Below are positions 2,344-19,911 of a stretch of 64,000 bases of DNA, one piece after another. The notes below the pieces were generated by a model. That model made no database searches and was not told the DNA's origin. It worked only from the letters and a program-made list of their open reading frames with translations. The translations under genes were made by a program, and so were the position numbers. The stretch comes from an uncultured bacterium. GTDB taxonomy: Bacteria > Patescibacteriota > Patescibacteriia > Magasanikbacterales > GWA2-37-8. How positions within the stretch are numbered: the first letter of the stretch is position 1; each line of letters begins with the position of its first letter. Location: assembly GCA_937903605.1 (NCBI GenBank), contig CALCZC010000007.1:189805-253804 (forward strand), in the 5' to 3' direction.

Positions 2344-2640
2344 TCAAAATGGCAATAATTCGTCGTACAAATCTTTCCATTGTGGATTATTTTCTTCAAT
2401 CAATCTTAATTTCCATTTTCTATTCCATTTTTTAAGATGTTTTTCTCTTGATATGGCATTATCTATATTATCGTAAACTTCATAATATACCAAAATATGT
2501 ACATTGTATTTTTTGGTAAAGCCTTTTATTGTATTACTTTTATGCTCAAAATTTCTTCTAATCAAATCATTGGTTACGCCGGTATATAATGTACCGTTTT
2601 TCTGACTAGCTAAAATATAGACATAATATTGTTTGGACAT
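2344..2640 (-). CDS. GIY-YIG nuclease family protein (UPF0213/YhbQ-like)
   Basis: YYVYILAS...GTLYTGVTNDLIRR...EHK...KKY GIY-YIG core. Confidence 0.75.
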   Translation of the reverse strand: MSKQYYVYILASQKNGTLYTGVTNDLIRRNFEHKSNTIKGFTKKYNVHILVYYEVYDNIDNAISREKHLKKWNRKWKLRLIEENNPQWKDLYDELLPF

Positions 2641-5700: not shown

Positions 5701-8700
5701 CTACTGCCTCCGCCACCAGATGGCCAAGTATTGCGAGTCACTCCGCCCAAAGTGATGGAATCAGCCACCAAAATATCAGTGGTACTCACTGTGCCTAAAA
5801 CATTGATATTGTTTACAGTCAAATCCGAAATCGTAGTTGTAGCCAAAATTGAATTACCCAAAACATTCAGCGTGCCGTCAATATATACCGAAGAACTGGC
5901 ATAAATAATATCTTTGAACCACACCGGAAGAGTTGTGGAAGTTGTCAAAACATTTCCGCCGTTGTGCGAAGCTAACAACCAGTTGGCGGTCGCCCCGCCG
6001 GCACTCGCCAACAAATTTCCGTTCCAATAAAGATCTCCGCCAATGTTGTAAATAGAGTTGGTGGTAGTGGCTGTGGCCGTATCTCCAATATAAATACCTC
6101 CGTCAACGTGGAGTTTGTTAAGCGGATCATAAAGTGCTTGGCCGATACCCACAAACCCGGTTCCTGCCTGAATAGTCAAAATGTCGTCCCCTTCCGCCCC
6201 GACTGAGTCGTCCCAAAGACGAAAATCCAGAGAACTGGTCGGCATATACCAAGACCAACCATTGTCATAACTACCACTATTCACGCGACGGATATAATGT
6301 CCCGCCTCACCGTTACCATTGGCGACAATGGTAATATAATTACGAGAGCTGGTAGGACTGGAGCTTAAATCAGATCCCCAAACTTCCAAAAGATCATAAG
6401 GTGTGGAAGTGCCTATTCCAAAAGAACCCTCAAATGTGGCAAAAGATTTATTTTGTAAATCACCATGACCGTTACTAATAAAATATTCCACTGTGCCGGA
6501 AACTCCGTCCGCAGTATATCTCACCGGGAAAATATCAGTATCTGTTTTGAACTGGTTGGAAGTCAACACTATATGATCGTTGGCCGTATTGGCGGAGCTA
6601 AGGTAAACATTGTTTTCACTAACCCCCGGACCGGCCCAAGCAAAAGAAGAATTGGTGATTTGCACTCCGGATAAAACAGTGGAACTGTTCACATAAGCCG
6701 GAATCAATTTTACGCTTCCCGGAGCCACAGTCAAAATTGTTGCAAATGCCGAATCAACATAAGTATTAAATCTGGCATTATCATGATAAAAAATCTTAAC
6801 GTTATTTGCCGGAGCAGTGGCATAAATCGGAAAAGTGATTACAGGGTCTTTGATAGTAGCAATACTACGTAAACTTTGATTATCGGTATAAAGCACAGAT
6901 AGATCATCGTCACTGTCATAAGTATTTACAAAAATTTCCGGGTTATAGATATAAGCGTTGGTAATAGTTGAGCTGGTTAGATAAAAAATGGTATTTATTT
7001 TTGTCCCAACAGTATTGGTAGTTTGAGTAAAGTTGTATTTATTGGCGGTAAAACTTTCCAAAGTGCCGTTTTCTTGATAAACCACGGCTTGGATATCTTT
7101 ACTACCGTCCGTATATTTCGCACCCACAGTTACATTTTTCAAAACAGATTTACCTGCGCTTTTTATCTCTACCGCATAATCATCCGTATTTTCCAGATCA
7201 ACCATAGATAAAACACTGCCATAAGTCATATCAAACGTGACTTTGCCTTTGATAAAAGTATTACAACCCATACCTCGAACTACTACAAAATCTTTCATCT
7301 GCAAATCTTCGGTGAAAGTTCCGGCGGAAACTGAAACCGTATAAGGATTGGTAGAAGACGATAAAACCGCGGCCGTATCAATAGCGTTTTGGATGGTTTT
7401 TTTTGCTCTGGCCGTACTGTTGCCATCAAAACTGTCTTTACCGCTCACCGCGTTAACATAAATAATATTACCTTCAATAAGCGCGTCATTAATAACGATT
7501 TCCGACCAAACATTGTGATTATTATTGATATTGCGAAGTTCCATGATACCGTTATTGTCACGGAAACCATATCCTGCTGCTCCGGTCGTAGTGCCAAAAT
7601 TAATATAACGATTTTCTCCTTCAATAAAAACATTACCACTAATTGATAACGGGGCCAAAGGAGTGGAAGTACCGATACCAACATAACCGGCATTACCCCC
7701 GCCGGTTCCAACTATCACCATACTTCTTTGTTCGTCGGTTGGATCAACATCAAAAATAATATCTCCGCCCGAGGCCAATGTCGAAAGTAATAAATCACTG
7801 ACTGAATACAACGCCAAACTGCCGGAAATTCCCGGGAGTCCGTCATTCCAGCCGGAACTCAAGGCTGTCAAACCGCCCAATTTTCCCAAATCGTTATACA
7901 AACTAAATTCCGCAGTAGAAGAAGGACCGGAGTTGTTATTGTGAATAGCCAAATTTAATTCATCATTAGTATCTCCGTATAAATAAAAGGCCTTGCCATT
8001 GACAGTGGTAGTATTTATAGCCACTAAACCGTTTTCATCTATAATCACGCGCTCTGTGCCGGCTGTTTGAAAATGAATTTTGTTTTCATTTGGTGAAGCT
8101 TCGGTTTCCACTTTAGTATCTCCGTCCGCGTCTTGAATATATGTGCTAGTATTACCACCGACAACCGGCGAGCCGTTCCAATAAAGTTGCCCGCCAAGAT
8201 TATAAAGGGTGTAAGAAGTTACTGCCGGAGAAGTACTGCAAATAGACAATCCACCTATTAATGTCAAAGCGTTTTTTGGTGTGGTAGTACCAATACCGAT
8301 AAAACCGCTGCTAGACACAAAAATATTACTGGTCGGCGCCCAAGAATCTCCATCCCAATAAGCAAATTGCCCTTCGGTAACACCAGGATCAACAGCAGTC
8401 AAAGGAACACTATTCATAAGATAACTACCGGTAATATCTATATCTCCGTCAACAGTCAATTGTGAATTGGGAGTGGAAGTACCAATACCGACATTGTCAC
8501 TACTGCCTTGTACAAACAAGGCATAATCATTATCCGGCGTCTTAACTTGAAAATCATAATTTCCACTACTACTGTTAAATATCGCTCCTCCTTGGAAATA
8601 CATCAACGAATTAAACCCATCCAAAGTCATTAATTTATTATCAATCAAACTTTTACCATCACCGGTGTCGTTGTTATAAAAATTAAAAAGCAAATTGGAG

Positions 8701-11700
8701 TTTGTTCCATATTTTGACATCATCCAACCTCGCATACTGGAAGTAGAACCAAATCCATCGGTATCCGAATAAAGATACAATCCGGCAATAGCACTCCTAT
8801 CTCCGCTGATTGCGGATAATTTTGCCTCACTGCTAGTCGCTTGAACTCCGAGCATCGTTCTTTCTCCGGGATTGTCATTAACAAAGATTAAACCATTATT
8901 TCTATAATAATCAGCTTGATAAGATAGTTTCGGAAGAATAGCCATGCCCGTATCAATTTTGATAACATCTTGATTGATATTGGAGTGCCTACCAAATAAA
9001 ACCACCCCTTCTTCTTCAGCCAAAGCGTAAAAATAAACATTGGCCGGATTATTGATGCTAATATCGGCACTGGAAAAAGCTCCGTCGCTCGAAGAAATAT
9101 TTATGGACGAACTGTCTTTTTGATCAATATTCAAAGTGGCCGCTTTCTGCAAATAACTGGCCGTAACTTTGGTAGCGGAATCGTCATTGGTAATAATGTT
9201 ATAATCCAAACCCCACATGTTGGAATAACGAATTTCCGCATAAGATCCGTTTCCTTCTATAAAAAGCCCTGTGCCCAAATCGCTGTTGGATCCGAATTCA
9301 CTGCCAACCATATAAAAAGATGACGAACCTGTCGTACTTTTCAAATGTACAAATCTGTTTTCAACATTTTCCATATAAACATTTTCGACTTGAGCTGCAG
9401 CACCGTTGTCTAAATTCACACCAATATTGCCGATATTATAAAAATCTGATTTGAAAATATTTAACAAGTTGGCTACTTGCATATTTATACCTGTCTCTGT
9501 GTCTATAATCACCAATTCGGAAAAATCCATCCAAACACTGCCGGTATTACTAACTCTAATAGCATCGCAACCGGATGTATTTCGAAAACCGACGGTTTGT
9601 GAACCGTCAATGGTCAACAAACGAATAGAAAAATCATTTTCTTCAGAAAAATTTATTTCAAAAATAGGACCGGGAGAACTGACCAGGTCCGTTGTCGGAC
9701 GAATCATCACCGCTTCTGTACTCATACCTCGAATACTTTTTATGTGAGTACTGGTAACAACCAAAGTAGATGAAACATCATAAACTCCGGGATAAATATT
9801 TATTATAGTGTCATAATCAACACCATTAGCAAAAGCAACAGCGTCTTCCAAATTATCAAAATCTCCCCCGCTTTTGGCCACATTGATGATATGGTCAACT
9901 TTGGTCGAAAAATTATTCCAACCACCACTCGCGTTCTTCCATTGCATCACCCCGGCATTATCGCGAATACCATAACCTACTGTCCCTGTATTATTTCCGA
10001 AATTCAAATACCTATCCGCGCCGGTAATAGAAAGATTGCCATAAACATCCAAAGCGGAAAGAGGAGAAGTGGTACCGATACCGACAGAACCTCCAAAATA
10101 ATTCACAGATGCTGTACCATCGGAATAAATATTAAAATTGGAATTTTGAGCAAAATTTTGTTCTTCGATATAAAGTCCGTACAAACTTCCGATTGTTCCC
10201 GTTCCCGTGCCGCTGGTCGGGTTATTAATTCTCATTCCAAAAGCCGTTCCAATATTTCCTCCTTCTATACCAAAATCTGATTGAATAGCCGAAGCATTGG
10301 AAATAATCCCATTACCTATACCGTTTTCAATATAACCGCTTAAGCCCAAAGCCAATCCTATGTTTCCGCTAAAATTTACATCTCCGGAACCATTAGTCGC
10401 TGTTTGTCCTCTCAATCCGAAAGCAACACCAACACTTCCCGTGGAATTGTCCAACTCGGCAGAAGAAATTTGTCCCAAAATCATGTTAACCGATCCTGAA
10501 CCTTGATGAATAACTTGATTTAAAAGACCGGCGATAACTTCAAAATTATTATTATTACCTTCATTGGTTGTAACACTGAGCAAAGTATTGATTGTTGTAG
10601 AAGCATCTTCTATAGGATCAAGCTCTATACCCATAACATTACCCAAAGTAAAGCCGTCTCCTGAATTTGATAAATTTGTATATTTTTTATAAGAAGCAAA
10701 AACCGAACCGCTTGGAATCTCTGCGGGAAAATTTTCTCCCACCATCAATTGAGTGATCGTGGTGGTGGACAAAGTGGAACTTCCTATAACATTCAAGTTG
10801 TTATTTATTATCAAAGCTCCGGTCATGGTATCGCCTGCAACATTAACCCAATTGTCCGTACCGGAGACCATAAAAGAGGTACTAGTAAAACCACTCCCCA
10901 CCAAACTCGTGCCGTTAAACCAAATAAATTCATTGCTCGCAAAACTGCCGGCATTGGTGCCGCCATTGGCAATCGGCAAAATTCCCGCGATATCGGAAGT
11001 CAGGTTTACTGTTGAAGTAGACCAAACACCGTTGTTAATTTTTACAAAACCTGTCCAACCGCTAGTGTCTTGTCCTGTCCCGCCATAATTGGTCGCAATA
11101 ATATCACCCTGCCATGTACCGGCGGAAATAGTACCAAAAGAAGATGCTCCGGTTAAGATAAGATTGGCAATAGTAGTCGTTGCCATCAGAGTATTTCCGG
11201 TAATGGCTAAATTTCCACTAATACTGGAAGTGGCAGTGCTACTGTTCATGGTTAAGTTTGCACCTGTAAATCCGCCGGATAAAATATTTAAATTCAAATT
11301 GTTATCCAGAGCCAAAAGCGTATTGGCCACAGCAGTGGAAGAAGCATGAAAACCGTCAACTCTGTCGGAATTGAAAGCATACGGATGAGTCGCCAAAATC
11401 ACACGCGGACTGGCTTCGTTGTCACTTTCTATTTTTACCGCCAAATAATAAGTACCTGTGCTAAAATCCAAATAACTCGGAAAAGCGCCGCAAGCACCAA
11501 GATTTACGGTAAAATATCCTTGGGCATCAGGTTGAACTTTGGGACAATTTCCGGAACTGCCGTCATAGACTTCAGTCCAAAGCAAAGGTCCGGCGGAACT
11601 TGGCGTATCTGTAGGAACTCCGGTGTTTGCGTTGTTATAAATAGAAAATTGAATAGTGGTAGAAGTAGTAATCGGCGTTCCTCCGTTATCTCGCAATCTG

Positions 11701-11852
11701 CCTTGGTAATTTATCAGGTTTGGAATAGCTAAAACTTCTTTACCTATAAAAGAAAAAACCGTCACTAACGCAACAAAAAACATGGCTTTCTGTATATTCA
11801 TCTTTAGAAAGTTAACAAGGAGTTTGGATTTTATTCCCCTCCGAATATTCAT
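2757..11852 (-). CDS. Giant (3031 aa) secreted cell-surface protein with beta-helix domains, recurring GIGT(S/T)TP motif and Pro/Glu/Thr-rich C-terminus
   Basis: Uninterrupted 9.1-kb ORF with an N-terminal signal peptide. Two beta-helix cap-like motifs (AVSGKDSFDGNSTARAKKTIQNAIDTA; AKSGGDFDNLEDAVAFANG). At least 8 copies of VGIGTSTP-like motifs. Tail (ETP/VEP)n. Confidence 0.8.
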   Translation of the reverse strand: MNIRRGIKSKLLVNFLKMNIQKAMFFVALVTVFSFIGKEVLAIPNLINYQGRLRDNGGTPITTSTTIQFSIYNNANTGVPTDTPSSAGPLLWTEVYDGSSGNCPKVQPDAQGYFTVNLGACGAFPSYLDFSTGTYYLAVKIESDNEASPRVILATHPYAFNSDRVDGFHASSTAVANTLLALDNNLNLNILSGGFTGANLTMNSSTATSSISGNLAITGNTLMATTTIANLILTGASSFGTISAGTWQGDIIATNYGGTGQDTSGWTGFVKINNGVWSTSTVNLTSDIAGILPIANGGTNAGSFASNEFIWFNGTSLVGSGFTSTSFMVSGTDNWVNVAGDTMTGALIINNNLNVIGSSTLSTTTITQLMVGENFPAEIPSGSVFASYKKYTNLSNSGDGFTLGNVMGIELDPIEDASTTINTLLSVTTNEGNNNNFEVIAGLLNQVIHQGSGSVNMILGQISSAELDNSTGSVGVAFGLRGQTATNGSGDVNFSGNIGLALGLSGYIENGIGNGIISNASAIQSDFGIEGGNIGTAFGMRINNPTSGTGTGTIGSLYGLYIEEQNFAQNSNFNIYSDGTASVNYFGGSVGIGTTSPLSALDVYGNLSITGADRYLNFGNNTGTVGYGIRDNAGVMQWKNASGGWNNFSTKVDHIINVAKSGGDFDNLEDAVAFANGVDYDTIINIYPGVYDVSSTLVVTSTHIKSIRGMSTEAVMIRPTTDLVSSPGPIFEINFSEENDFSIRLLTIDGSQTVGFRNTSGCDAIRVSNTGSVWMDFSELVIIDTETGINMQVANLLNIFKSDFYNIGNIGVNLDNGAAAQVENVYMENVENRFVHLKSTTGSSSFYMVGSEFGSNSDLGTGLFIEGNGSYAEIRYSNMWGLDYNIITNDDSATKVTASYLQKAATLNIDQKDSSSINISSSDGAFSSADISINNPANVYFYALAEEEGVVLFGRHSNINQDVIKIDTGMAILPKLSYQADYYRNNGLIFVNDNPGERTMLGVQATSSEAKLSAISGDRSAIAGLYLYSDTDGFGSTSSMRGWMMSKYGTNSNLLFNFYNNDTGDGKSLIDNKLMTLDGFNSLMYFQGGAIFNSSSGNYDFQVKTPDNDYALFVQGSSDNVGIGTSTPNSQLTVDGDIDITGSYLMNSVPLTAVDPGVTEGQFAYWDGDSWAPTSNIFVSSSGFIGIGTTTPKNALTLIGGLSICSTSPAVTSYTLYNLGGQLYWNGSPVVGGNTSTYIQDADGDTKVETEASPNENKIHFQTAGTERVIIDENGLVAINTTTVNGKAFYLYGDTNDELNLAIHNNNSGPSSTAEFSLYNDLGKLGGLTALSSGWNDGLPGISGSLALYSVSDLLLSTLASGGDIIFDVDPTDEQRSMVIVGTGGGNAGYVGIGTSTPLAPLSISGNVFIEGENRYINFGTTTGAAGYGFRDNNGIMELRNINNNHNVWSEIVINDALIEGNIIYVNAVSGKDSFDGNSTARAKKTIQNAIDTAAVLSSSTNPYTVSVSAGTFTEDLQMKDFVVVRGMGCNTFIKGKVTFDMTYGSVLSMVDLENTDDYAVEIKSAGKSVLKNVTVGAKYTDGSKDIQAVVYQENGTLESFTANKYNFTQTTNTVGTKINTIFYLTSSTITNAYIYNPEIFVNTYDSDDDLSVLYTDNQSLRSIATIKDPVITFPIYATAPANNVKIFYHDNARFNTYVDSAFATILTVAPGSVKLIPAYVNSSTVLSGVQITNSSFAWAGPGVSENNVYLSSANTANDHIVLTSNQFKTDTDIFPVRYTADGVSGTVEYFISNGHGDLQNKSFATFEGSFGIGTSTPYDLLEVWGSDLSSSPTSSRNYITIVANGNGEAGHYIRRVNSGSYDNGWSWYMPTSSLDFRLWDDSVGAEGDDILTIQAGTGFVGIGQALYDPLNKLHVDGGIYIGDTATATTTNSIYNIGGDLYWNGNLLASAGGATANWLLASHNGGNVLTTSTTLPVWFKDIIYASSSVYIDGTLNVLGNSILATTTISDLTVNNINVLGTVSTTDILVADSITLGGVTRNTWPSGGGGSSIWVTTTANVVYPDLTGDYAVVVGNSATSSNVKFEVVGHSKLGGNLSVTGTSTLSGPVLFGDNIQFTTAGNNNFYFNNGINNYLRWNNSATQFELSNGLMVSGLVSSTALQVNGDVTTTGKMVIGGPVGIGTTTPQAPLHVVTDNAGPAMTILQKTIAGATNLNFVTQNNKYWQLSKRDDNQDDKFIFYFVDDAGLFNNVLTLNSTGTIGINQQDPGAMLSITGTTTYPLLSIMTSSSEPALIVNQYGHVGIGTSDIGYYKLRIYEPDNGLTAEVKSGSSTKTALFNLKAGSDVEFLQLGYYGIDTPGFAGVLPGSAVWDSVAPGGSYFINESTSTDAALIFMTDGWQAENERMRITNGGYIGIGTSTPISKLSLNEGDFRITSGTDGWIIGPNAFPNRAGSTDLIGLNVTNSSTWKAGLFSEVGGTLLSYGINATQLGDRNTSSIGAIFRLDTRADTPYWSIKRQPVGSSTEYSDMQIARTGEIGFGGFANDTNVFSGQVHILTATTTNVGLAVQGMVGQTAALQHWLNSDGVVVGEAKYLSQNFGMSLETGAFIARNSYFGEEFMRGRGNVTADTLYAWGDFQQFTVDENTACTWSSVANGVNGIGRQQATNGANSCLAYHGITTAGTANLVFNTANLPVITFKASPSAVTANIRFRIGLSNLSRAQTADPLNGVYFTNNTTNGEWQGVSRRAGASTVVDCAGQAINTAVFGVAKIEVVSSNGDGTGEINFYIDNDATDGVDWFYCGQATTNIPTVGLTSMIMNNTVAGGGAQYIDIDYYRVWQDDSKETPMLTTEEIVEEIPEEMETNLLGQAQIMAGDISVKVDFEGEYAVPPMMGITPLNFDGRWKLQNVTTRGFEITLTEQATDSVIFNWQAYIVEDDTKIYSSNGTVESLKDFYNKINEEIILPPIESSGESTPSAPIEAPAETPIEPVTETPPAETPVEPVEETPPVEEPVPDTSPTEEPAAPAETPADVPVE

Positions 11853-12000: not shown

Positions 12001-12717
12001 CTAAATATTAGCGAGCGCTGTTATAGTAATTACCCCGTTATAACTACCTGATTTTTGATCTATTGGCGCGCTGGCACGATAATCAACCACAGTCACGGTA
12101 GTGCCCCAATTACATGTCGGACAATTCATAAATTGCGAATTTACAGTTGGAAATCCGCCATATTTAGCATTTAGAAGAGTGTCATCACTACCCCACCAAG
12201 CATTGTTATAATTGGAAGTCGTGCCTGATTGTTTTACACGAAAAGACAGATTGTTTCCCGGTGTATTTGTGGCATTGCCGGAACCGCTCGGATTCCAAGA
12301 AACATAATCCGGGAAATCAACCGATGAATCAACGGTCAAATCTACAGTTGAACTTACATCCTCTCTTTTGACTGACAAATTATATCCACTTAATGAACCG
12401 GGTATAGTAACATAAACCGCAGAACTGGCAAAAGTTGGTATATTTGGCAATATTTCTCCAAAATTTACAGTCGGCTCAACAGTAATTACCATCATAGGAA
12501 ATTCCATTACCAATCCGTGATCATAAATATAGTTTGTACTGGTGGCTCTACCTACCGCCGGATCACCAGCTCCACCTTTTAATTGAAAACCACTGGAAGT
12601 AGCGTCGTGATAGATAGTGCCGTAAGTTTGTCTATCAATTTGATTCTGCGCCAAAACTACCTGAGAAGTTATCAGGCACGATATCAAAATAACGGCTAAT
12701 TTTAGAGAAAAAGACAT
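12001..12717 (-). CDS. Secreted protein, WxL-like C-terminus (paralog A)
   Basis: Signal peptide; C-terminal SYNGVITITALANI; paralogous to 12964..13650. Confidence 0.7.
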   Translation of the reverse strand: MSFSLKLAVILISCLITSQVVLAQNQIDRQTYGTIYHDATSSGFQLKGGAGDPAVGRATSTNYIYDHGLVMEFPMMVITVEPTVNFGEILPNIPTFASSAVYVTIPGSLSGYNLSVKREDVSSTVDLTVDSSVDFPDYVSWNPSGSGNATNTPGNNLSFRVKQSGTTSNYNNAWWGSDDTLLNAKYGGFPTVNSQFMNCPTCNWGTTVTVVDYRASAPIDQKSGSYNGVITITALANI

Positions 12718-12721
12718 AAAA

Positions 12722-12860
12722 AAACAAACTCAAATCTCAAAGTTCAAATCTCAAAACTTTTGTATTGATTGGCAATATTCAAATTATCCGTCCCGCCAAG
12801 CGGGACTCCAAACTTTTGACTTTTGAGTTTTGAATTTTGATATTTTATATTATACCTCAT
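12722..12860. promoter_or_regulatory. Divergent promoter region with long imperfect palindrome around a GC hairpin
   Basis: Arms ctcaaatctcaaagttcaaatctcaaaacttt / aaacttttgacttttgagttttgaattttga flank gtcccgccaagcgggac. Confidence 0.4.
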
Positions 12861-12963
12861 TTTACCGTTATTCGTAAAACTAATTACTTATCCACATATT
12901 TTTCGTTTTTATATTTTTTCCCTATTATCAAAAAAATCAAAAAATAGTATAATACCTTGTGGA

Positions 12964-13650
12964 ATGATTTTAACATTAAATCATTTCAATAAATTAATAA
13001 ATTTATTTATTAACCTAATTTATTTTATGAGGAGGAAACTTCTTTCTTTCATCGTCCTTATGGCGATGTTTACCGCTTATAGCGGATATTTAAATCTCGG
13101 CGTGGCCAAAGCCGCCGAAGACAGTGAACAACAAACTATAGTTTTGTATGTCACTTCAACCATCACTTTAACATTGGCGACTTCCACGATAAATCTCGGC
13201 ACTTTAACTCCGGGAACTCCTGTCAACGGCAATACTTCTTTGACAGTCACTACCAACGATCATAATGGTTTCAACTTACAAGTAAAAAGAGACGACGCTG
13301 ATTCCACTTTGGATTTGGATGCTGATGGCACTGTCAATTTTCCAGATGCTACAGCTTGGAATTACTCTGCGCCAAATGCCACAACTTCTCCTGAAGTAGG
13401 AGCCAATCTTTCTTTCCGTTTGATGGTGGCCGGTACTGACGCCGCTTTGCAAAATACAGGTTTTTGGGGAACTGACGGAGCCAAACTTTGGGCCGGTTTT
13501 CCAACTACCAATCAACGCGTAACAGGTATCAGCAGTTGGGTTGGAGCAGCTCAAAATGTCGCTTACGAATTTAGAGCCGATGCTCCGGCTACTCAGGAAT
13601 CCGGTCAATACACAGGTACTATTACCTTTACCGCGATTACCAATCCATAA
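12964..13650 (+). CDS. Secreted protein, WxL-like C-terminus (paralog B); true start probably MRRKLL near 13030
   Basis: Signal peptide; C-terminal YTGTITFTAITNP resembles the WxL distal motif YxxxITWxLxxxP. Confidence 0.7.
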   Translation: MILTLNHFNKLINLFINLIYFMRRKLLSFIVLMAMFTAYSGYLNLGVAKAAEDSEQQTIVLYVTSTITLTLATSTINLGTLTPGTPVNGNTSLTVTTNDHNGFNLQVKRDDADSTLDLDADGTVNFPDATAWNYSAPNATTSPEVGANLSFRLMVAGTDAALQNTGFWGTDGAKLWAGFPTTNQRVTGISSWVGAAQNVAYEFRADAPATQESGQYTGTITFTAITNP

Positions 13651-13673
13651 ATTAACAATTTAATTTCATTTTT

Positions 13674-14627
13674 ATGAAAAGCATGTTGAACTGGAGGGTT
13701 CTTACGGTTTTTTTCTTAGTTGTTTTTTGTACGCTTTTCAAAATAGAAGCTGCGTCCGCGCAGCTTTCTATTTCTATCTATCCTCTTTCCTTTAAAGCAC
13801 AGGTAAATCCTGGAGATACCTGGAGCGGCAGCGTCACGGTTATAAACCCCAATGATTATCCTATTTCCGTTCGTCCTGAAAGAGAAAATCTTGTTGGAGG
13901 CGCGGAAGGTGAAGTTAGTTTAATAGGAGAAACTGATCAGAACTACGGTCTAGCTTCTTGGATTAAATACAACTCTGAAAAAGACTTCGTTTTAGCGGCC
14001 GGAGAAAGAAGAAAAATAGATTTTGTGATGAATGTGCCAAAAAACGCCCAACCTGGCGGACATTACGGTGCGGTTCTTTTTCGCGGCACGGAAATAAATA
14101 AAAAGCCATCCGGAGAAAGCGGACTTGGTGTAGCCGGGCGCGTAGGATCGGTAATGCTCTTTGAAGTCAGTGGAGACGTGCAAAAAACCGGAGAAATTTT
14201 TTCCGTTGAAACAAAGAAATTTATCGCTCACGGACCTCTTGATCTGACTTTTAAAGTCAAGAATACTGGTAATACTTTTTTCTTACCTGAAGGAAAAGTT
14301 GAATTCAAACATTTTTGGAAAAAACTTGAAACTACTTGGGAACCGCGCGTGGTATTTCCGGGATATGAAAGAACATTCAAAACAACTCTTGATAAAAAAT
14401 ATCTTTTTGGTCCTGTCAAAGCCACTATTTTGGCCAAAATGAGCGACGGAGCGGATTTAACCCCGATTTCCGTGACTGTTTGGGCATGGCCTTGGAAAGA
14501 AACATTGATCTTACTCGGTATTATCGCCGTGCTTTGGTTATTGAAAATTTGGTTGCTAAAAAACTTCAAAATTGTTAAAATAGAAAAAACGGAAAATACA
14601 GACGAAAATAAAAAAGGAGATGCCTAA
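13674..14627 (+). CDS. Secreted beta-rich protein with C-terminal TM anchor (DufA/DUF916-DUF3324-like topology)
   Basis: Signal peptide, roughly 270-aa ectodomain, C-terminal helix LILLGIIAVLWLLKIWLL, short charged tail. Confidence 0.6.
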   Translation: MKSMLNWRVLTVFFLVVFCTLFKIEAASAQLSISIYPLSFKAQVNPGDTWSGSVTVINPNDYPISVRPERENLVGGAEGEVSLIGETDQNYGLASWIKYNSEKDFVLAAGERRKIDFVMNVPKNAQPGGHYGAVLFRGTEINKKPSGESGLGVAGRVGSVMLFEVSGDVQKTGEIFSVETKKFIAHGPLDLTFKVKNTGNTFFLPEGKVEFKHFWKKLETTWEPRVVFPGYERTFKTTLDKKYLFGPVKATILAKMSDGADLTPISVTVWAWPWKETLILLGIIAVLWLLKIWLLKNFKIVKIEKTENTDENKKGDA

Positions 14628-15723
14628 ACGATTGTTAAAATCAATCTTTGCGACACAAGCCTCGAAATATTTCCTTTTGGGGCTTGTGTTTTTATTGTCC
14701 GCTCTGCCGGCTTTGGTTTTTGGCGCCGTAGTCACACAAAATGTAACCGTTTCCATCGATAATAGCTCTTATCACTGTTCCAACAAAACTCAAGATTATG
14801 ATGAAACCGGTGTGGATTGTGGCGGAACGCTTTGCGGAACTTGCGGAACACATTGTACAAACGGAATTAAAGATTTTGACGAAACAGGCGTTGATTGCGG
14901 AGGGTCTTTGTGTCCTTCTTGCGGCGGGGGTGGAGGCGGTGGCGGGGGTGGAGGGGGTTCTCTGCCGGTTTTAGTTTCTTCAGTAAACTTTTCCGGTTTT
15001 GCTTATCCGAATGCCAAAATATTTTTTCTTCGCGACGGAATTTTGGTTAATACCTTTTTTGCTTCTTCAACCGGAACTTTTCAATATTTGTTAAATTCCA
15101 TTACTGCCGGTAATTATCGTTACACCTTTTACGCTTCCGACTCAAGAGGAGGATATTCTTCTTCTTTGGTTTTTCCTTTAACCGTGGTTGCCGGAAATTC
15201 TTATCAAGTAAGCAACATTTTGATTCCTCCGACCTTATATTTCAATTCTCAAGAAATAAAGCGCGGTGACAGTTTAGAATTTTATGGTCAAAGCGCACCA
15301 AACTCAATTCTTCTGCTGGAATTAAAAAATTCTGTTTCCGGAAATACTTCCGCTTTTCAAACCATCGCCGATTCTTCGGGAAATTATTCTTATCTTTTAG
15401 AAACCTTGGGGTTGCCGGAAGGAAATTATGAAATCAAAATCAAAATGAAAATCGGTCTTATTGAAAGCGCTTTTAGCAATTCTTTTCCTTTTACGATCGG
15501 CGTCAAAACAGTGGAAAAACCCGTTCCTACGAGTAAATGTCCGGCCAAAGGCGATCTTAACGGCGATTGTAGAGTAAATTTGGTTGATTTTTCCATTGCC
15601 GCTTATTGGTACAAACGCACGGTCGCCACAAGTTTTATCAATACGGAAAATTCACAACTCAACGGCGATGATATTATCAACTTGATAGATTTTAGTATTT
15701 TGGCTTATTATTGGACCGGGTAG
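14620..15723 (+). CDS. Secreted Cys-rich repeat protein with poly-Gly linker and C-terminal dockerin-like repeats
   Basis: Two YDETGVDCGG.LC..CG repeats; a Gly12 run; GDLNGDCRVNLVDFSIAAY and QLNGDDIINLIDFSILAYYW match the dockerin Ca-binding repeat consensus. Confidence 0.7.
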   Translation: MPKRLLKSIFATQASKYFLLGLVFLLSALPALVFGAVVTQNVTVSIDNSSYHCSNKTQDYDETGVDCGGTLCGTCGTHCTNGIKDFDETGVDCGGSLCPSCGGGGGGGGGGGGSLPVLVSSVNFSGFAYPNAKIFFLRDGILVNTFFASSTGTFQYLLNSITAGNYRYTFYASDSRGGYSSSLVFPLTVVAGNSYQVSNILIPPTLYFNSQEIKRGDSLEFYGQSAPNSILLLELKNSVSGNTSAFQTIADSSGNYSYLLETLGLPEGNYEIKIKMKIGLIESAFSNSFPFTIGVKTVEKPVPTSKCPAKGDLNGDCRVNLVDFSIAAYWYKRTVATSFINTENSQLNGDDIINLIDFSILAYYWTG

Positions 15724-15727
15724 TGAA

Positions 15728-15778
15728 AGTTCGGCTAGGCGCCCTTAGCGCCCTATTGCCGAAGGCAAGCCGAACTTC
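15728..15778. repeat. GC-rich three-stem structured element
   Basis: agttcggc ... gccgaact encloses ggcgcccttagcgcc and ttgccgaaggcaa. Confidence 0.45.
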
Positions 15779-15810
15779 TACTACCCGGTGGACCGGGATA
15801 ATGTAAAGAT

Positions 15811-16098
15811 ATGTTTTTTTACGTTTATATTATACAAAGTTTAAAAAATAAAAGCCTTTATGTTGGCTATACCCAAGATTTAATAAAAAGATTAGACCAA
15901 CACAATGATGGCAATAGTACGTATACAAAAAAATATATACCTTGGCAATTAATTCACTACGAAGCTTACCGCAATGAAATAGATGCAAAACGCAGAGAAA
16001 AATATCTCAAAACAAATCAGGGGAGCCGTTTATTGAAGCGTATGTTAAAAGAATACTTTTATAATCAAAATTCCAATGATTCAGATTCAAAAACTTAA
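15811..16098 (+). CDS. GIY-YIG nuclease family protein (second copy)
   Basis: FYVYIIQS...SLYVGYTQDLIKRLDQHN...KKY...EKYLK. Confidence 0.75.
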   Translation: MFFYVYIIQSLKNKSLYVGYTQDLIKRLDQHNDGNSTYTKKYIPWQLIHYEAYRNEIDAKRREKYLKTNQGSRLLKRMLKEYFYNQNSNDSDSKT

Positions 16099-17014
16099 AA
16101 ATCACCTCTTGATACCAATGGTTATTTTGGGAGCTTTCTTTGTAATTACACCTACTTTGGCTGCGGAATTTTTTGCCACAGCTTCCAATCATAATCCTGA
16201 AATCGGTGAATACATACAAGTGGACTTATTTTTGGATACTGCCAAAGAAGAAATAAACGCTTTGGAAGCCGCTGTTATTTTTCCTGAAAATTTGTTGGAT
16301 CTGGTGGATTTTTCTTATGGAAATTCGGTTATCAATTATTGGGTGGAAAAACCTCACCAAACTGACGAACATAATAAAATATTTTTTTCAGGTATTACTC
16401 CCGGCGGATTCAACGAAAACTCAGCTTATTTGTTATCTTTGATTTTTAAAACCAAAAATACCGGCCGCGGTGAAATACTTTTTTCTCAAAATAAAACTTT
16501 GAAAAACAACGGCTTTGGCACGGAAACGAAGAGTTCGGGAAAAAAACTTTCTTTCAATGTTCAAACCGGTCTCAAAGGTGATGATACGGAAAATATTTAT
16601 AAAAATTTAGACAAAATACCTCCGGAAAACTTTGATCTTTTTGTTTATGAAGATAATAATATCGCTTCCGACAAGAAAGCTTTGATTTTTGACACGATAG
16701 ACAAAGATTCCGGGGTATCCCGTTATGAAGTATTAGAAGAAAAAACCGGACACTTGTTAGGTTGGGAATTTAAAATAGGACGCTGGACTCCGGCAACCAG
16801 CCCTTATGTTTTGCAAGATCAACAAATGCGTAGCAATATCTATGTCAAAGCCATAGACAGAGCCGGAAATGAACGAATTGTCTCATTAATGACCGTTCAG
16901 ACTCCGCGATGGTATACGAATTTGAATTTTTGGATTATAATAATAACTGTAATCATACTTCTCATTTTATCCAGGAGGGCTTATGAGAGATTTTCGCGGA
17001 AAAATAAAAATTAA
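16076..17014 (+). CDS. Cohesin-like domain surface protein with C-terminal TM anchor
   Basis: Signal peptide; IGEYIQVDLFLDTAKEEINALEAAVIFPENLLDLVDFSYG pattern typical of a cohesin beta-sandwich; C-terminal TM WIIIITVIILLIL. Confidence 0.55.
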   Translation: MIQIQKLKNHLLIPMVILGAFFVITPTLAAEFFATASNHNPEIGEYIQVDLFLDTAKEEINALEAAVIFPENLLDLVDFSYGNSVINYWVEKPHQTDEHNKIFFSGITPGGFNENSAYLLSLIFKTKNTGRGEILFSQNKTLKNNGFGTETKSSGKKLSFNVQTGLKGDDTENIYKNLDKIPPENFDLFVYEDNNIASDKKALIFDTIDKDSGVSRYEVLEEKTGHLLGWEFKIGRWTPATSPYVLQDQQMRSNIYVKAIDRAGNERIVSLMTVQTPRWYTNLNFWIIIITVIILLILSRRAYERFSRKNKN

Positions 17015-17798
17015 ACTGGCGATTTTTGTCGCTTCTATTTTTGCTTCTTTTGCTTTTGTTTCGATTTCCGAAGCGGCTTCTTTGTATTTTTCACCGAGTT
17101 CAGCGACTTATCGTCTCGGTGAAACTTTCCAAATTTCTCTGTATGTAAATAGTGCCGATCAAGCTATGAATGCCGCTCAAGCAACGGTCAATTTTCCAAT
17201 CGACAAACTTTCTGTTATTTCCGTTTCCACTAGAAATTCTATTTTTTCCTTAATGGTGGAAAGTCCTACTTTTTCCAATGTAAATGGTAGTGCCGGTTTC
17301 TCCGGAATAGTTTTGAATCCCGGATATACCGGAAAAAGTGGCCGATTGGTAACAATAAATTTCTCAGCCAAGACTTTAGGAAAAGCAACGATTACCGTTG
17401 GTGGGGCTCAAGTTTTGGCCAATGACGGAGTTGGTACAAATATTTTAACCGGTCGTGGCAGTGCTACGGTAAATATTATTGAGAGACCCAAAGTTGAACC
17501 TAAACCAGAAGTTAAGCCGGAAACAAAACCTACCACTACTCCGGAAGTTGTTACTCCAACCACCACACCAACTACGACAATTATTTATGTAACAACCACA
17601 CAATATATTATAACCTCTACCGCTTGCTCGGTTGAAAAACTACCGGTAATTTATTTGAAAATCGGTGGACTATCTACTGGTCCCAGTTTCTTACTCTTAC
17701 TGTTACTCATACTTTCCGCGTTGATAACAATTTATAGTTTTTATAAAGGCTTCACCTATCCGGAAAAAAAGAAAAGAATTTTTGGAAAGAGAAAATAA
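16983..17798 (+). CDS. Cohesin-like domain surface protein with Thr/Pro linker and C-terminal anchor
   Basis: LGETFQISLYVNSADQAMNAAQATVNFPIDKLSVISVS...GRLVTINFSAKTLGKATI; (TTP) linker; C-terminal LSTGPSFLLLLLLILSALI plus a basic tail. Confidence 0.6.
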   Translation: MRDFRGKIKIKLAIFVASIFASFAFVSISEAASLYFSPSSATYRLGETFQISLYVNSADQAMNAAQATVNFPIDKLSVISVSTRNSIFSLMVESPTFSNVNGSAGFSGIVLNPGYTGKSGRLVTINFSAKTLGKATITVGGAQVLANDGVGTNILTGRGSATVNIIERPKVEPKPEVKPETKPTTTPEVVTPTTTPTTTIIYVTTTQYIITSTACSVEKLPVIYLKIGGLSTGPSFLLLLLLILSALITIYSFYKGFTYPEKKKRIFGKRK

Positions 17799-18117: not shown

Positions 18118-18461
18118 ACACTCAACGTCCCACAAAAAATCCATAATCAAAGAAAATAAAATTCTAAATATCCAACTTTATGTCGGATATTTTTTAATTT
18201 ATTTTTTATAAATTTTTAATTTACATTTTTTACTTTTGAATTTTGAGTTTTGACTTTTGAGTTCGACTCGTCTGTGACGAGTCGCCCTGTGTATAACTTC
18301 ACAAAATCTATTTCATTATTTTGCAAAAGCATTTATAATAAAGATAGGTCGAATTTTTTATGACATGCTTGTCTATAAAAAATTTATAAATTTTTTCTTG
18401 CGATCGCAAGATGAAAAAAATTATTTCATTTATCTCAAAAAAGAAAGGGGGTGCGCAAACT

Positions 18462-18578
18462 ATGAAAAAGAAAGCTAAAAAAGTTGTGAAAAAAGCTAAA
18501 AAAGTTGTAAAGAAAGTTAAAAAAGCTGTAAAAAAAGTAGCTAAAAAGAAAGTTGCCAAAAAAGGCAAAAAGAGATAG
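18462..18578 (+). CDS. 38-aa lysine-rich basic peptide (MKKKAKKVVKKAKKVVKKVKKAVKKVAKKKVAKKGKKR)
   Basis: ATG preceded by aaggggg RBS; followed by hairpin terminator caccgt...acggtgttttt; not in the ORF track (under 60 aa). Confidence 0.55.
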   Translation: MKKKAKKVVKKAKKVVKKVKKAVKKVAKKKVAKKGKKR

Positions 18579-18699: not shown

Positions 18700-19911
18700 A
18701 TGTACAAAAAATTTTTAATTTCTTCGGTAATAATGTTTTTTGGATTGGTTTTGCTCTCGGGTAAAACTATGGCCATGGAAGAAAAAAGTTTTGAGGATGG
18801 AACTTTGATAAAAATCAAAGGTCAAAAAGTAATTTATTTACTGGAAGAAGGTGTCAAAAGACCTTTTGCCAATTCCGATACTTATAAAAATTACGGATAT
18901 TCTTGGTATGAAATAAAAACTGTCAAAGAAGAAGATGTGGCAAATTATCAAACCGGTCCGGAAATCAAAACACCGACCGTACAAATAACCGCTGATAAAC
19001 TTTTTGTTCGAAAGTGGCCGTTGCGTTTTAGTAAAATTTTATTTACCGCACAAAAAAATGAAACTTACGAAATAGTGGACATGATGGGCTCTTGGTATAA
19101 AATCAAAAATAACGAAAAAATTCTAGGTTGGGTTTCTTCACGTTATACTGTTGTTTTGGATGAAGAGATGGATGACTTCGTAATTATCAAGAAAGAAGAA
19201 GCGAAGTCCCTCACCGAACAAAGTTCTGGTGACGGGAAAAAAATTGAATCAATCAAAACCGAAGAAGTCAAAACCGAACCAATTGCAAAAGAGCCGGTAG
19301 TGAAAGAATCTGCTCCGAGCAAAGCGCTGACTTTGAACTATCTTGGTAATGGAAAATTTTCCTGGAAAAAAGTCGGAACATTTTCACAAGGGTACAAATT
19401 AGTCTGGTCAAAAAATTCCAATCCGACATATCCTCTGCGCGATGGAGATAAATATGCTTTTTATTCCAATCCTGAAACATTAACCGGTTATGTAACGGCT
19501 TTTGCCGGTGAAGGAAAATATTATGTGCGAGTTTGTGAATATTTGGGTGGTAAGTGCGGCATATATAGTAACCAAGTCACAATTACGTTGCTTGGTGATA
19601 CTGAAAAAACAGTAGAAAAAGAAACAACTCAAGCCGTAACTTCAATCACATTAACTTCTTTGGGTGAAGGAAAAATCAATTGGAAAGTAAACGGCTACTC
19701 CAAAAGTGGTTTCAAAGTTGTTTGGTCACAAAACCCATCCCCTACTTACCCGACTCGCGACGGTGATCAATATCATTACTATTCGGAACCGACCCAAACC
19801 ACAGATACTGTAAATAATTTTGACGGCGAAGGAAAATATTATGTTCGGGTATGCGAATACTTGGGAGGAAAATGTGGAATTTACAGTAATCAAATAGAAG
19901 TGAATTTATAA
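18700..19911 (+). CDS. Secreted protein with SH3b-like domain and two roughly 90-aa tandem repeats
   Basis: Signal/TM N-terminus; WYKIKNNEKILGWVSS SH3b-like; repeats ending GEGKYYVRVCEYLGGKCGIYSNQ x2. Confidence 0.7.
   Translation: MYKKFLISSVIMFFGLVLLSGKTMAMEEKSFEDGTLIKIKGQKVIYLLEEGVKRPFANSDTYKNYGYSWYEIKTVKEEDVANYQTGPEIKTPTVQITADKLFVRKWPLRFSKILFTAQKNETYEIVDMMGSWYKIKNNEKILGWVSSRYTVVLDEEMDDFVIIKKEEAKSLTEQSSGDGKKIESIKTEEVKTEPIAKEPVVKESAPSKALTLNYLGNGKFSWKKVGTFSQGYKLVWSKNSNPTYPLRDGDKYAFYSNPETLTGYVTAFAGEGKYYVRVCEYLGGKCGIYSNQVTITLLGDTEKTVEKETTQAVTSITLTSLGEGKINWKVNGYSKSGFKVVWSQNPSPTYPTRDGDQYHYYSEPTQTTDTVNNFDGEGKYYVRVCEYLGGKCGIYSNQIEVNL

Follow-up and report, generated by a model that had tools for sequence, protein, structure and literature searches.

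Cohesins and dockerins are the defining modules of the cellulosome. Within cellulosomes, anchoring scaffoldins such as the type I cohesins of C. thermocellum OlpA/OlpC (3ul4, 4dh2) and R. flavefaciens ScaE (2zf9) are cell-bound by SLH domains or sortase, and their ligands are scaffoldins or enzymes. Non-cellulosomal counterparts have been described in the toxin/glycosidase complexes of Clostridium perfringens (2w1n, 2jh2, 2vo8) and for a cohesin of Archaeoglobus fulgidus (2xdh). Two other systems are relevant here: the Pam pilus of CPR bacteria, for which the published model has PamR as a necessary membrane tether at the base of the pilus, in a preprint that mentions no cohesin or dockerin (bioRxiv 10.64898/2026.03.03.709456), and the WxL/Csc clusters of Firmicutes, which comprise a small protein, a large protein and WxLIP, a protein with two Ig domains and a transmembrane (TM) helix (PMC10599100).

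In the 64-kb stretch of DNA analysed here (the window, from an ultrasmall CPR/Patescibacteria bacterium; all coordinates are window positions), a dockerin gene (DOC) and two cohesin genes (cohA, cohB) lie on the plus strand, and we think it probable that they form a non-cellulosomal, calcium-dependent joint by which a surface-filament or adhesin system is tethered to the membrane. Binding of the dockerin to these cohesins is our inference, as are the need for calcium, the stoichiometry and the target of the DOC head. The locus comprises the following features:

2757 to 11852, minus strand: giant secreted protein, 3031 aa (ORF; conserved neighbour in the closest relatives)
12001 to 12717, minus strand: p238, PamT-like pilin-domain protein, 238 aa (NCBIfam, seeded HMM)
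12964 to 13650, plus strand: p228, small Pam-type pilin-domain protein, 228 aa as listed (NCBIfam, seeded HMM)
13674 to 14627, plus strand: p317, WxLIP-like protein, 317 aa, two Ig-like domains and a C-terminal TM helix (Pfam, family profile)
14620 to 15723, plus strand: DOC, secreted dockerin protein, 367 aa (ORF, Pfam, homologs, family alignment A3)
14620 to 14727, plus strand: predicted Sec signal peptide of DOC, residues 1-36 (...PALVFG/AVV), read from the sequence
14776 to 14925, plus strand: Cys-rich head of DOC, two [YF]DETGVDCGG.LC..CG units (sequence)
14923 to 14958, plus strand: Gly12 linker of DOC, residues 102-113 (sequence)
14977 to 15519, plus strand: two Ig-like stalk domains of DOC, approximate limits (weak Pfam matches, family)
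15529 to 15720, plus strand: dockerin module, DOC residues 304-367 (PDB match, conservation)
15553 to 15588, plus strand: Ca loop 1 of the dockerin module, D312-D323
15655 to 15690, plus strand: Ca loop 2 of the dockerin module, Q346-D357
15721 to 15812, plus strand: GC-rich structured leader of the GIY-YIG element (folding, comparison of relatives)
15811 to 16098, plus strand: GIY-YIG nuclease ORF, 95 aa (Pfam GIY-YIG, E 1.6e-16)
16076 to 17014, plus strand: cohA, membrane-anchored cohesin protein, 312 aa, with signal peptide, cohesin (16163-16564), second beta-sandwich (16637-16888), TM helix (16922-17002) and basic tail (AF2, Foldseek, profiles)
16983 to 17798, plus strand: cohB, membrane-anchored cohesin protein, 271 aa, with signal peptide, cohesin (17076-17480), Thr/Pro-rich linker (17481-17681), TM helix (17682-17756) and Lys-rich tail (family Pfam, hhalign, AF2, Foldseek)

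The pairs of C. perfringens and A. fulgidus are among the best structural matches, and the locus shares with them cohesins that occur singly and not in cellulosomes, and a dockerin carried by a non-cellulolytic protein; unlike them, it has both cohesins on small type I membrane proteins, a non-enzymatic Ig-stalk protein as the partner, a trio whose operon is fixed throughout an entire bacterial radiation, and a dockerin that often carries a Cys pair, a probable staple of the first Ca loop. The anchoring scaffoldins, also close fold matches, would have in common with cohA and cohB that a cell-bound one-cohesin protein captures a dockerin-bearing partner at the cell surface, but cohA and cohB are attached by a TM helix, and no enzymes or carbohydrate-binding modules were seen here. 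The locus resembles the Pam system in its CPR-specific pilin-domain genes and a gene for a membrane-anchored protein with two Ig domains, which lie immediately 5' of the trio; however, the pilin-like proteins of the window score far below the NCBIfam cut-offs, and Saccharimonadia and Microgenomatia are the main groups in which Pam is described, while most of the named loci here belong to Parcubacteria/Paceibacteria-type candidate phyla. The WxL/Csc layout is mirrored by the small pilin, the large pilin and p317, although WxL proteins differ in binding peptidoglycan non-covalently, and we know of no cohesin-dockerin genes in WxL clusters.

Almost all of the 80 species-level Patescibacteria loci compared keep the order DOC-cohA-cohB. 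A locus scan found exactly one dockerin ORF in 71 of 75 loci, the 64-kb window contains no second one, and the ratio of DOC to cohesin genes is 1:2 per locus. The non-cellulosomal role suggested by the original prediction is likely, because the single dockerin ORF of the window, as of each related locus, is not on an enzyme, and the trio probably serves to keep surface structures attached to the cell, with no part in cellulose degradation. The alternative of a small cellulosome-like scaffold, on which enzymes would break down polysaccharides, would agree with the presence of both defining cellulosome modules and with best PDB matches that are cellulosomal, but it is very improbable, since the sole dockerin here and in related loci sits on the Ig-stalk protein, cohA and cohB each contain one cohesin and lack a carbohydrate-binding module, and no glycoside hydrolase was found among the window ORFs scanned.

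All the strings quoted in the original prediction are present in the sequence, and its order of a dockerin gene followed by two cohesin genes is correct; the three are not directly consecutive, however, as the GIY-YIG ORF lies between DOC and cohA. Nor is the module 'self-contained', as had been claimed: it makes up the conserved 3' half of a larger operon, which also contains pilin-domain and WxLIP-like genes. The start of DOC overlaps the stop of the p317 ORF, the p228 ORF joins the same gene string, and such overlapping genes at the locus count towards linkage of the trio (ORF list). The usual upstream neighbours are Pam-type pilin-domain genes and a WxLIP-like membrane protein gene (here 12001-14627), the latter directly 5' of DOC in about 40 of the 80 loci. 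The trio was also found beside unrelated upstream genes (giant + c5 + c2; Type II loci) and is therefore not tied to pilins only.

DOC has at least 942 homologs, and 35 members form its family alignment, A3. The protein consists of a signal peptide, two Cys-rich units, Gly12, two Ig-like domains and a dockerin. The predicted signal peptide has a basic n-region, with a hydrophobic segment at residues 20-38. The head contains eight Cys (53, 67, 72, 75, 79, 93, 98 and 101), its units occupy residues 60-76 and 86-102, and it is the most variable part of DOC, with head types in the family that carry DETGVDCGG, CGN..GE.CDG or a Cys-free domain of ~170 aa. Of 73 DOC homologs, 60 have a poly-Gly run of at least five residues, and A3 shows G104-G110 to be invariant or almost invariant. 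In the stalk, weak Pfam matches cover residues 124-182 (Big_6, also matched by 33 of the 35 family members) and 219-277 (Big_13).

In A3, no part of DOC is as well conserved as the dockerin, which fits a fixed protein partner. The C-terminal 57 residues match the solved dockerin 2y3n_B (E 1.6e-5), and although Pfam Dockerin_1 scores 21.1 bits on DOC itself, 1.8 below the cut-off of 22.9, it is matched by 29/35 family members, which bears out the dockerin call. Within the module, GDLNGDCRVNLVDFSIAAY corresponds to residues 311-329 and QLNGDDIINLIDFSILAYYW to residues 346-365; D312, N314, D316, N320, D323, D350 and D357 are invariant, the second Ca loop has Gln in place of Asp at position 1, and the two helices are near-identical repeats, VNLVDFSIAAYWY and IDLVDFSIMAYYW, across the 35 homologs. 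Cys307 and Cys317 covary (both present in 61 sequences, neither in 40, one in 2), suggesting a probable disulfide that staples the first Ca loop.

The cohesin calls on both downstream ORFs were upheld by confident AlphaFold models (pLDDT 86 for cohA; averages of about 89-97 for the blocks spanning the cohesin domain of cohB) and by best PDB matches that are almost all cohesins. In Foldseek, cohesins make up nearly all of the top 50 PDB matches of cohA and every one of the top 36 of cohB, and 2w1n, a cohesin+FN3 structure, matches cohA over both domains (E 5e-11). The cohA profile matches cohesin 5aoz (E 0.0055), its family comprises 2,986 clusters at E≤1e-30, and PF00963 is matched by 7 of 34 cohA homologs and 22 of 25 cohB homologs; the window's own cohA and cohB have no match to Pfam Cohesin at E≤1. 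The two families match each other with 99.9% probability (hhalign) and have in common the motifs N-A, FSGI..PGG and NDG.GT. The segment IGEYIQVDL... lies in cohA, and LGETFQISL..., like LSTGPSF, in cohB; the two cohesin segments had been quoted in the reverse of gene order. Alternatively, cohA and cohB might be PamR-type pilus tethers or assembly factors taking a pilin donor strand, their cohesin fold being a mere beta-sandwich and the dockerin-like module of DOC binding calcium or wall polymers instead of them. PamR of Ca. Mycosynbacter amalyticus, described as two beta-sandwiches with a C-terminal TM helix (32.8 kDa), approximates cohA in size and layout, and no cohesin partner is known for many dockerin-like modules outside cellulosomes. 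We nevertheless regard this as improbable, given that Foldseek puts cohesins, and not RbmA or FnIII pairs, in essentially all of the top 50 places for both proteins, that a dockerin gene always adjoins, one per locus, and that within DOC the dockerin is conserved best.

Both cohesin proteins end in a hydrophobic helix followed by a basic tail, kept in both families, in agreement with the predicted membrane anchoring. A reading of these anchors as PGF-CTERM/PEP-CTERM-type sorting signals, which a sortase-like enzyme would cleave so as to move the cohesins to wall or lipid, draws on the LSTGPSF, hydrophobic stretch and basic tail of cohB, which the original prediction had likened to such signals, but is extremely unlikely. 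The 'GPSF' is confined to relatives of at least 73% identity, and below about 70% the motif is lost, more distant homologs having LPxxFLKIGxxxFD, then the TM helix, then a long Lys-rich tail of 15-30 residues; cohA has no LSTGPSF-type motif. Those polytopic membrane ORFs of the window that have a Pfam identity include no exosortase, archaeosortase, rhombosortase or sortase, and its membrane ORFs show no TLxTC motif. The original prediction had itself set a sorting signal against a plain stop-transfer helix with no sorting enzyme, and by that yardstick the cohB anchor is a stop-transfer helix.

Among the upstream genes, p317 matches Pfam WxLIP_PGBD (E 4.5e-4; 11 of 27 family members also match), and its family profile matches both domains of E. 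faecium WxLIP1 (9i25, 9i1y; E 4e-5), making it a candidate membrane-anchored pilin chaperone or holder. p228, which probably starts at Met22 of the listed ORF, scores 19 bits against NCBIfam CPR_Pam_pilin_C (cut-off 55), but reaches 116 bits with an HMM whose seed was a pilin above the NCBIfam cut-off; p238, divergently transcribed upstream of the giant ORF and with a distinctive N-terminal module (residues 25-72), matches PamT far below cut-off (E 2e-6) and the seeded pilin-domain HMM with 122 bits. Pam models are matched by 16-17 of 68 upstream proteins, one of which, in L030, clears the Pam pilin cut-off (144.6 bits). The giant protein has no Pfam or PDB sequence match; its homologs adjoin the trio in L001, L002, L083 and L084, and it is probably a fibre or adhesin of the system.

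In the tethering joint that we favour, DOC would be exported by Sec as a variable head, a poly-Gly hinge, a two-Ig stalk and a calcium-binding dockerin end, and cohA and cohB, as type I membrane proteins, would each expose one cohesin at the outer surface of the cytoplasmic membrane. By plugging into one or both cohesins, the dockerin would keep DOC, plus whatever its head binds, on the cell. The rest of the operon here codes for a WxLIP-like membrane protein, a divergent giant protein and two proteins with Pam-type pilin domains. DOC would most likely be an adaptor tethering that filament or fibre to the membrane. Counting against this reading are the Pfam shortfalls of the window's cohesins and dockerin, the Gln in Ca loop 2, the unrelated upstream genes elsewhere, and a Pam model that has its own tether, PamR, without cohesin or dockerin. 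DOC could instead be a stand-alone adhesin, its head a host-binding ligand displayed on cohA/cohB independently of any filament and the pilin-like neighbours only co-regulated, which we consider rather unlikely. The trio is kept even where upstream genes differ completely (Type II loci), the head varies most, as in receptor-binding proteins, and a poly-Gly hinge with an Ig stalk is a typical adhesin layout; however, DOC overlaps the WxLIP-like gene, and the head type does not vary freely but tracks the identity of the upstream gene. A Cys-rich head is present in 31 of 36 loci with a WxLIP-like gene upstream vs 0 of 16 with the alternative c2 gene (Fisher p 2e-9, uncorrected for phylogeny; lineages are related and loci not independent). 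In addition, DOC carries the p238 N-terminal module (E 5e-14) and adjoins the giant gene in L083 and L084, two loci of related lineages on which this fusion rests, exactly where p238 is missing and pilin-like and WxLIP-like genes are absent.

The GIY-YIG ORF is a recent mobile insertion outside the cohesin-dockerin machinery. The same site holds GIY-YIG proteins, 56-71% mutually identical, in L029, L032 and L072. The leader of the element (MFE -39.9 kcal/mol, z -5.1) is missing from the nearest relatives, L001 and L002, and is kept in L072, L029 and L032, where the substitutions look compensatory by eye.

Seven closely packed ORFs occupy positions 12001-17798 in the ORF listing of the window. 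They include the gene of a secreted dockerin protein (DOC) and those of two predicted membrane-anchored cohesin proteins (cohA and cohB), and on the minus strand the series continues beyond p238 into a giant ORF.

ORFs of the locus, with coordinates in the window, strand and product
2757-11852, minus strand: giant ORF, 3031 aa, coming after p238 on this strand
12001-12717, minus strand: p238, Pam-type pilin-like protein, 238 aa
12964-13650, plus strand: p228, Pam-type pilin-like protein, 228 aa
13674-14627, plus strand: p317, WxLIP-like protein, 317 aa
14620-15723, plus strand: DOC, dockerin protein, 367 aa
15811-16098, plus strand: GIY-YIG ORF, 95 aa
16076-17014, plus strand: cohA, cohesin protein, 312 aa
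16983-17798, plus strand: cohB, cohesin protein, 271 aa

Overlaps occur between p317 and DOC (8 nt), between the 95-aa ORF and cohA (23 nt) and between cohA and cohB (32 nt), and a tRNA-Arg gene lies directly after cohB. The gap between 12717 and 12964 carries promoter-like sites (consensus matches only) in both directions, which fits two divergent operons. Every string quoted in the original prediction was found in its place in the window, and the predicted series of a dockerin gene followed by two cohesin genes stands, although the intervening 95-aa ORF had been overlooked and the two cohesin segments had been quoted in reverse order.

The C-terminal module of DOC has the two F-hand calcium loops (Asp or Asn at positions 1, 3, 5, 9 and 12) and the helices that define a dockerin of about 60 residues. 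Loop 1 consists of D312, N314, D316, N320 and D323, all invariant in an alignment of 35 homologs, and loop 2 of Q346, N348, D350, N354 and D357, of which D350 and D357 are invariant; the sole departure from the F-hand pattern is position 1 of loop 2, which is Gln in the window and variable across the family. In the same alignment this module is the best-conserved region of the protein, and the helices after the two loops are near repeats of one another. Residues 309-365 match a solved dockerin of a cellulosomal family-48 hydrolase (2y3n_B) end-to-end with an E-value of 1.6e-5, other dockerins matching more weakly. The dockerin claimed from the sequence is thus borne out by this match and by the 29 of 35 homologs that match Dockerin_1 (PF00404) at E<=0.01, while DOC of the window itself reaches a borderline 21.1 bits over profile positions 1-53 of 57, below the curated cut-off of 22.9; Big_6 is matched by 33 of the 35. 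At least 942 DOC homologs exist, some of them labelled by NCBI automated annotation. Two Cys residues covary, one lying 4-8 residues upstream of the first loop and the other within it, at position 6 or 4: among 103 distinct sequences, 61 have both and 40 neither, two have the upstream Cys alone and none the loop Cys alone. In the window the pair is Cys307 and Cys317, and the covariation suggests that they probably form a disulfide stapling the first calcium loop. We know of no such Cys pair in classical dockerins.

Neither cohA nor cohB of the window matched the Pfam Cohesin family (PF00963) at E<=1 in a direct scan, and a scan with NCBIfam likewise gave no cohesin match, so their identity was traced through homologs, profiles and structure. 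Single-sequence searches of the PDB with either protein returned chance matches only (a SUMO tag linker, a cold-shock protein), and the cohB family profile found no match among PDB sequences. For cohB, 149 homologs were collected, many with a precomputed PF00963 match or the NCBI name "cohesin domain-containing protein", and 22 of 25 aligned family members matched PF00963 at E<=0.01. Word searches gave 86 homologs of cohA, PF00963 being matched by 7/34 at the same threshold, and the cohA profile matched a cohesin of Ruminococcus flavefaciens (5aoz, E 0.0055). The two family profiles match each other with a probability of 99.9% over 154 columns, and the paralogs keep common conserved motifs on strands 3, 5 and 6 and in the 8-9 loop. 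The AlphaFold model of cohA (overall pLDDT 86, with blocks across residues 31-160 averaging 92-98) comprises a signal-type helix, a beta-sandwich (30-163), a second beta domain (188-271) and a helix (283-309). Its 50 best Foldseek matches in the PDB are nearly all cohesins, with TM-scores up to 0.83, led by the cohesin and FN3 pair of Clostridium perfringens GH84C (2w1n, E 5e-11). In the cohB model the blocks across the cohesin domain (32-166) average pLDDT values of about 89-97, a disordered Thr/Pro-rich linker and a helix (234-258) follow, and the 36 best PDB matches are all cohesins. AlphaFold and Foldseek together place both proteins in the nine-stranded beta-sandwich (jelly-roll) fold of cohesins, and the assignment made from the sequence therefore holds for both, with PF00963 support that is transitive, through the homologs. 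A full HMM search at E<=1e-30 placed the relatives of cohA in 2,986 clusters at 50% identity, most of them 290-320 aa long and aligned end-to-end. Outside this locus, giant proteins such as P0327 (4269 aa) and P0333 (2468 aa) contain the second beta domain of cohA (profile positions ~168-258) in tandem repeats, with 31 matched stretches in one protein and 18 in another.

At the C-terminus, cohA and cohB both have a hydrophobic helix and, after it, a tail rich in Lys and Arg. Because this helix is combined with an N-terminal signal peptide, cohA and cohB are predicted to be type I membrane proteins with the cohesin outside. The original prediction had seen in the cohB anchor a resemblance to PGF-/PEP-CTERM sorting signals, which C-terminal alignments did not support. 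Such signals consist of a conserved PGF or PEP motif, a TM helix and a short basic tail, placed at the very C-terminus. The GPSF motif is confined to cohB relatives of at least 73% identity, other cohB homologs having LPxxFLKIGxxxFD ahead of the helix; the cohB tail is long (18 residues in the window, 15-30 in homologs), and the alignments show no GPSF-like motif at the cohA C-terminus. No sortase-type enzyme (archaeosortase or exosortase) was recognisable among the ten membrane ORFs of the 64-kb window, which include an MFS protein, a ZIP transporter and a GPDPase membrane domain; five of the ten have no family, three of these being polytopic. From the alignments and these 64 kb we therefore rejected a sorting signal of this kind.

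A scan with one genome per species found a cohA relative in at least 239 species, and the 80 best loci were examined. Their labels are of Patescibacteria type or uninformative, apart from a few discordant ones that are probably binning errors; they comprise Magasanik-, Wolfe-, Vogel-, Colwell-, Doudna-, Sung- and Kaiserbacteria as well as Falkow-, Jorgensen-, Komeili-, Lipton-, Nomura- and Taylorbacteria and Ca. Microsyncoccus archaeolyticus (PMX.50, locus L025). Searches with HMMs of the window proteins showed the order DOC-cohA-cohB to be kept in essentially every sufficiently long locus. One dockerin ORF per locus was present in 71 of 75, and the window has no second one. On a relative's contig (L001) the seven-gene arrangement of the window recurs, less the 95-aa ORF. 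Elsewhere cohB is typically 580-600 aa long, the 271-aa form being limited to the clade of the window. Downstream of cohB, close relatives have a 320-aa gene, then one for a T2SSE-type ATPase (type IV pilus/secretion family) and then a 382-aa gene (L001:10853-14717, L083:4070-7990, L084:4476-8441), where the window has the tRNA-Arg and other genes. A DOC homolog with 40% identity was also seen on a 13-kb contig (L082; GCA_038998885.1, JAWACL010000010.1) of a MAG labelled Candidatus Aenigmatarchaeota. Its gene string is similar (1233, 206 and 292 aa, DOC, 333 aa), with a single gene after DOC and then transketolase genes; the context resembles the same operon, and the homolog is either a case of mis-binning or a DPANN copy.

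Upstream of the trio of DOC, cohA and cohB, two layouts predominate. In Type I, to which the window belongs, a large protein, a small protein and a p317-like protein precede DOC. In Type II (L068:7510-7923, L072:6679-8221 and 15 other loci), a giant protein of 1,100-2,600 aa, a class A beta-lactamase-like protein (~330 aa; E 4e-19, below cut-off) and c2, a conserved small protein of ~137 aa that is anchored at its N-terminus and contains the motif LP..E.PTIATVTD...FF..AK.GDKVLIY, precede a longer DOC of ~445 aa. The small upstream protein of one locus (L030) scores 144.6 bits against the NCBIfam model "Pam pilus system pilin subunit", above the cut-off of 55, and the Pam models (NCBIfam NF058581 / NF058579) are matched by 16-17 of 68 Type I upstream proteins. 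An HMM seeded on the L030 domain converged on 42 ORFs in 22 loci, including p238 (122 bits) and p228 (116 bits), whose direct NCBIfam Pam scores lie far below the cut-offs (p228 19 bits against 55, p238 27 bits against 240). At residue 117, p228 has a calcium-loop-like stretch, DLDADGTVNFPD, and p238 has a similar one, DLTVDSSVDFPD.

WxLIPs are distinguished by tandem Ig domains (PF06030 / PF11797; DUF916 + DUF3324) and a C-terminal TM helix, and p317 shares this layout, with two Ig-like domains and a TM helix at residues 277-295. The profile of its family matches Enterococcus faecium WxLIP1 (9i25, 9i1y) over residues 23-252 and across both Ig domains, with an E-value of 4e-5. WxLIP_PGBD is matched by 11 of 27 family members, p317 of the window alone scoring 20.7 bits against the Pfam cut-off of 27.3. 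The giant ORF begins with a hydrophobic segment and gave no Pfam match at E<=0.01 and no PDB sequence match; its homologs adjoin the trio in L001, L002, L083 and L084 and lie downstream of cohB in L045, L066 and L070. In systems already described, WxLIPs are two-Ig-domain, TM-anchored partners of WxL surface proteins, with a predicted insertion of hairpin strands into them (PMC10599100), and the Pam pilus has TM-anchored PapD-like chaperones, donor-strand exchange and a TM-anchored tether, PamR (10.64898/2026.03.03.709456); the latter preprint mentions neither cohesin nor dockerin.

In DOC, the stalk and the dockerin are constant and the head is variable. Of 36 loci whose upstream gene is p317-like, 31 have a Cys-rich head (at least four Cys), against none of the 16 with c2 upstream (Fisher p 2e-9, uncorrected for shared ancestry). 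A poly-Gly run of five or more residues is conserved in 60 of 73 DOC homologs (12 residues in the window, 14923-14958), its position in every case being the junction of variable head and Ig stalk. In two loci (L083 and L084), the giant gene stands directly opposite DOC, p238, p228 and p317 are missing, and the N-terminus of DOC is the ~45-residue module with which p238 of the window starts (45% identity, E 5e-14); among the loci searched, this module occurs on p238 or DOC only. As read from these sequences, a fusion-type link, which rests on one clade, joins DOC to the pilin-like and giant proteins.

CPR/Patescibacteria live attached to host cells. How their surface filaments and adhesins are kept in place is, to our knowledge, poorly understood. 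The trio is a set of fixed order and ratio, one secreted dockerin protein and two membrane cohesin proteins, placed in an operon of pilin/WxLIP type. Dockerin and cohesins are connected by genomic linkage, a conserved dockerin gene adjoining the cohesin genes once per locus. We infer that the dockerin probably binds the cohesin of cohA, cohB or both, with calcium, and that this binding would anchor DOC by its base to the membrane. The head, projected by Ig stalk and Gly hinge, would then join the filament or fibre encoded upstream or bind the host itself. The near-identical halves of the dockerin and the two cohesin paralogs with the same conserved motifs make a dual-mode or ternary complex possible. 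We tentatively propose, as a speculative and rather improbable extension, that the cohesin-dockerin joint could supply the membrane tether so far missing for Pam/WxL-type surface filaments of CPR. The head of DOC would receive the end of the filament or giant fibre through strand complementation, and DOC would be plugged with calcium into the two membrane cohesins, possibly 1:1:1 with one on each of the two near-identical dockerin faces. Such a non-covalent, detachable anchor, common to thousands of Patescibacteria lineages, would replace the Gram-negative usher and the Gram-positive sortase.

In a cellulosome, dockerins are carried by carbohydrate-active enzymes, and a scaffoldin combines several cohesins with a carbohydrate-binding module. 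Such an arrangement was absent from the 64 kb: none of the window ORFs scanned matched a carbohydrate-binding module or a hydrolase, cohA and cohB have a single cohesin each, and the one dockerin of the window sits on an Ig-stalk protein. With one non-enzymatic dockerin per locus, we rejected a cellulosome for the window and the related loci. Cohesin-dockerin pairs outside cellulosomes are already known from C. perfringens and Archaeoglobus fulgidus, and some of these CPR proteins have already been labelled by automated annotation. We found no paper on a cohesin-dockerin operon in CPR; the papers found for cohesin or dockerin together with CPR, Patescibacteria or Parcubacteria concerned rumen, biogas or unrelated subjects, and the Ca. 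Microsyncoccus transcriptome paper mentions neither domain. What appears to be new is the fixed trio with TM-anchored single cohesins and its breadth across Patescibacteria, together with the probable disulfide-stapled dockerin and the linkage to Pam/WxL-type genes. The trio is among the most widely conserved surface gene sets in the loci examined, with about 3,000 clusters at 50% identity in the cohA family, and it is physically joined to newly described Pam-type pilus genes. If the dockerin plugs into two membrane cohesins, cohesin-dockerin would serve generally for cell-surface anchoring across a large share of the bacterial tree, well outside cellulose degradation. It would then also offer a concrete, testable answer to how pili are tethered in bacteria that have a wall but no outer membrane, and both of the strictly conserved binding partners are small and soluble.

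The GIY-YIG ORF belongs to a site-specific mobile element of ~350 bp (15721-16098), which is located precisely at the dockerin stop codon and which the nearest relatives lack. It comprises a 92-nt, GC-rich structured leader (MFE -39.9 kcal/mol, z -5.1) and the 95-aa ORF, which overlaps the cohA start. Closely related copies occupy the same site in three distant loci (L029:9633-9989, L032:3982-4377, L072:9572-9981), and the four same-site GIY-YIG proteins share 56-71% identity with one another, whereas identity to GIY-YIG ORFs elsewhere is 19-46%. The leader is conserved, with substitutions that appear compensatory on inspection and a repeated hairpin, CTACTACCCGGTGGACCGGG; all four inserted DOC genes end in TGGACCGGGTAG, which is half of this hairpin. 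Its features resemble those of a homing-type element, whose target would be the ultra-conserved 3' end of the dockerin gene. Beside the giant gene lies another GIY-YIG ORF (2344-2640, minus strand, 98 aa), which is unrelated and only 36% identical to the ORF at 15811-16098.

Beyond the trio, a 403-aa secreted protein (18700-19911, plus strand), which has a homolog in L002, contains a bacterial SH3 domain (E 3.9e-10) and, in translation, two ~90-residue units each ending GEGKYYVRVCEYLGGKCGIYSNQ. A 55-aa ORF (18411-18578, plus strand) consists almost entirely of Lys/Ala/Val repeats (KKAKKVVKKAKKVVKKVKKAVKKVAKKKVAKKGKKR); it overlaps minus-strand ORFs of mirrored composition and, judging from its composition, may encode a small basic protein.
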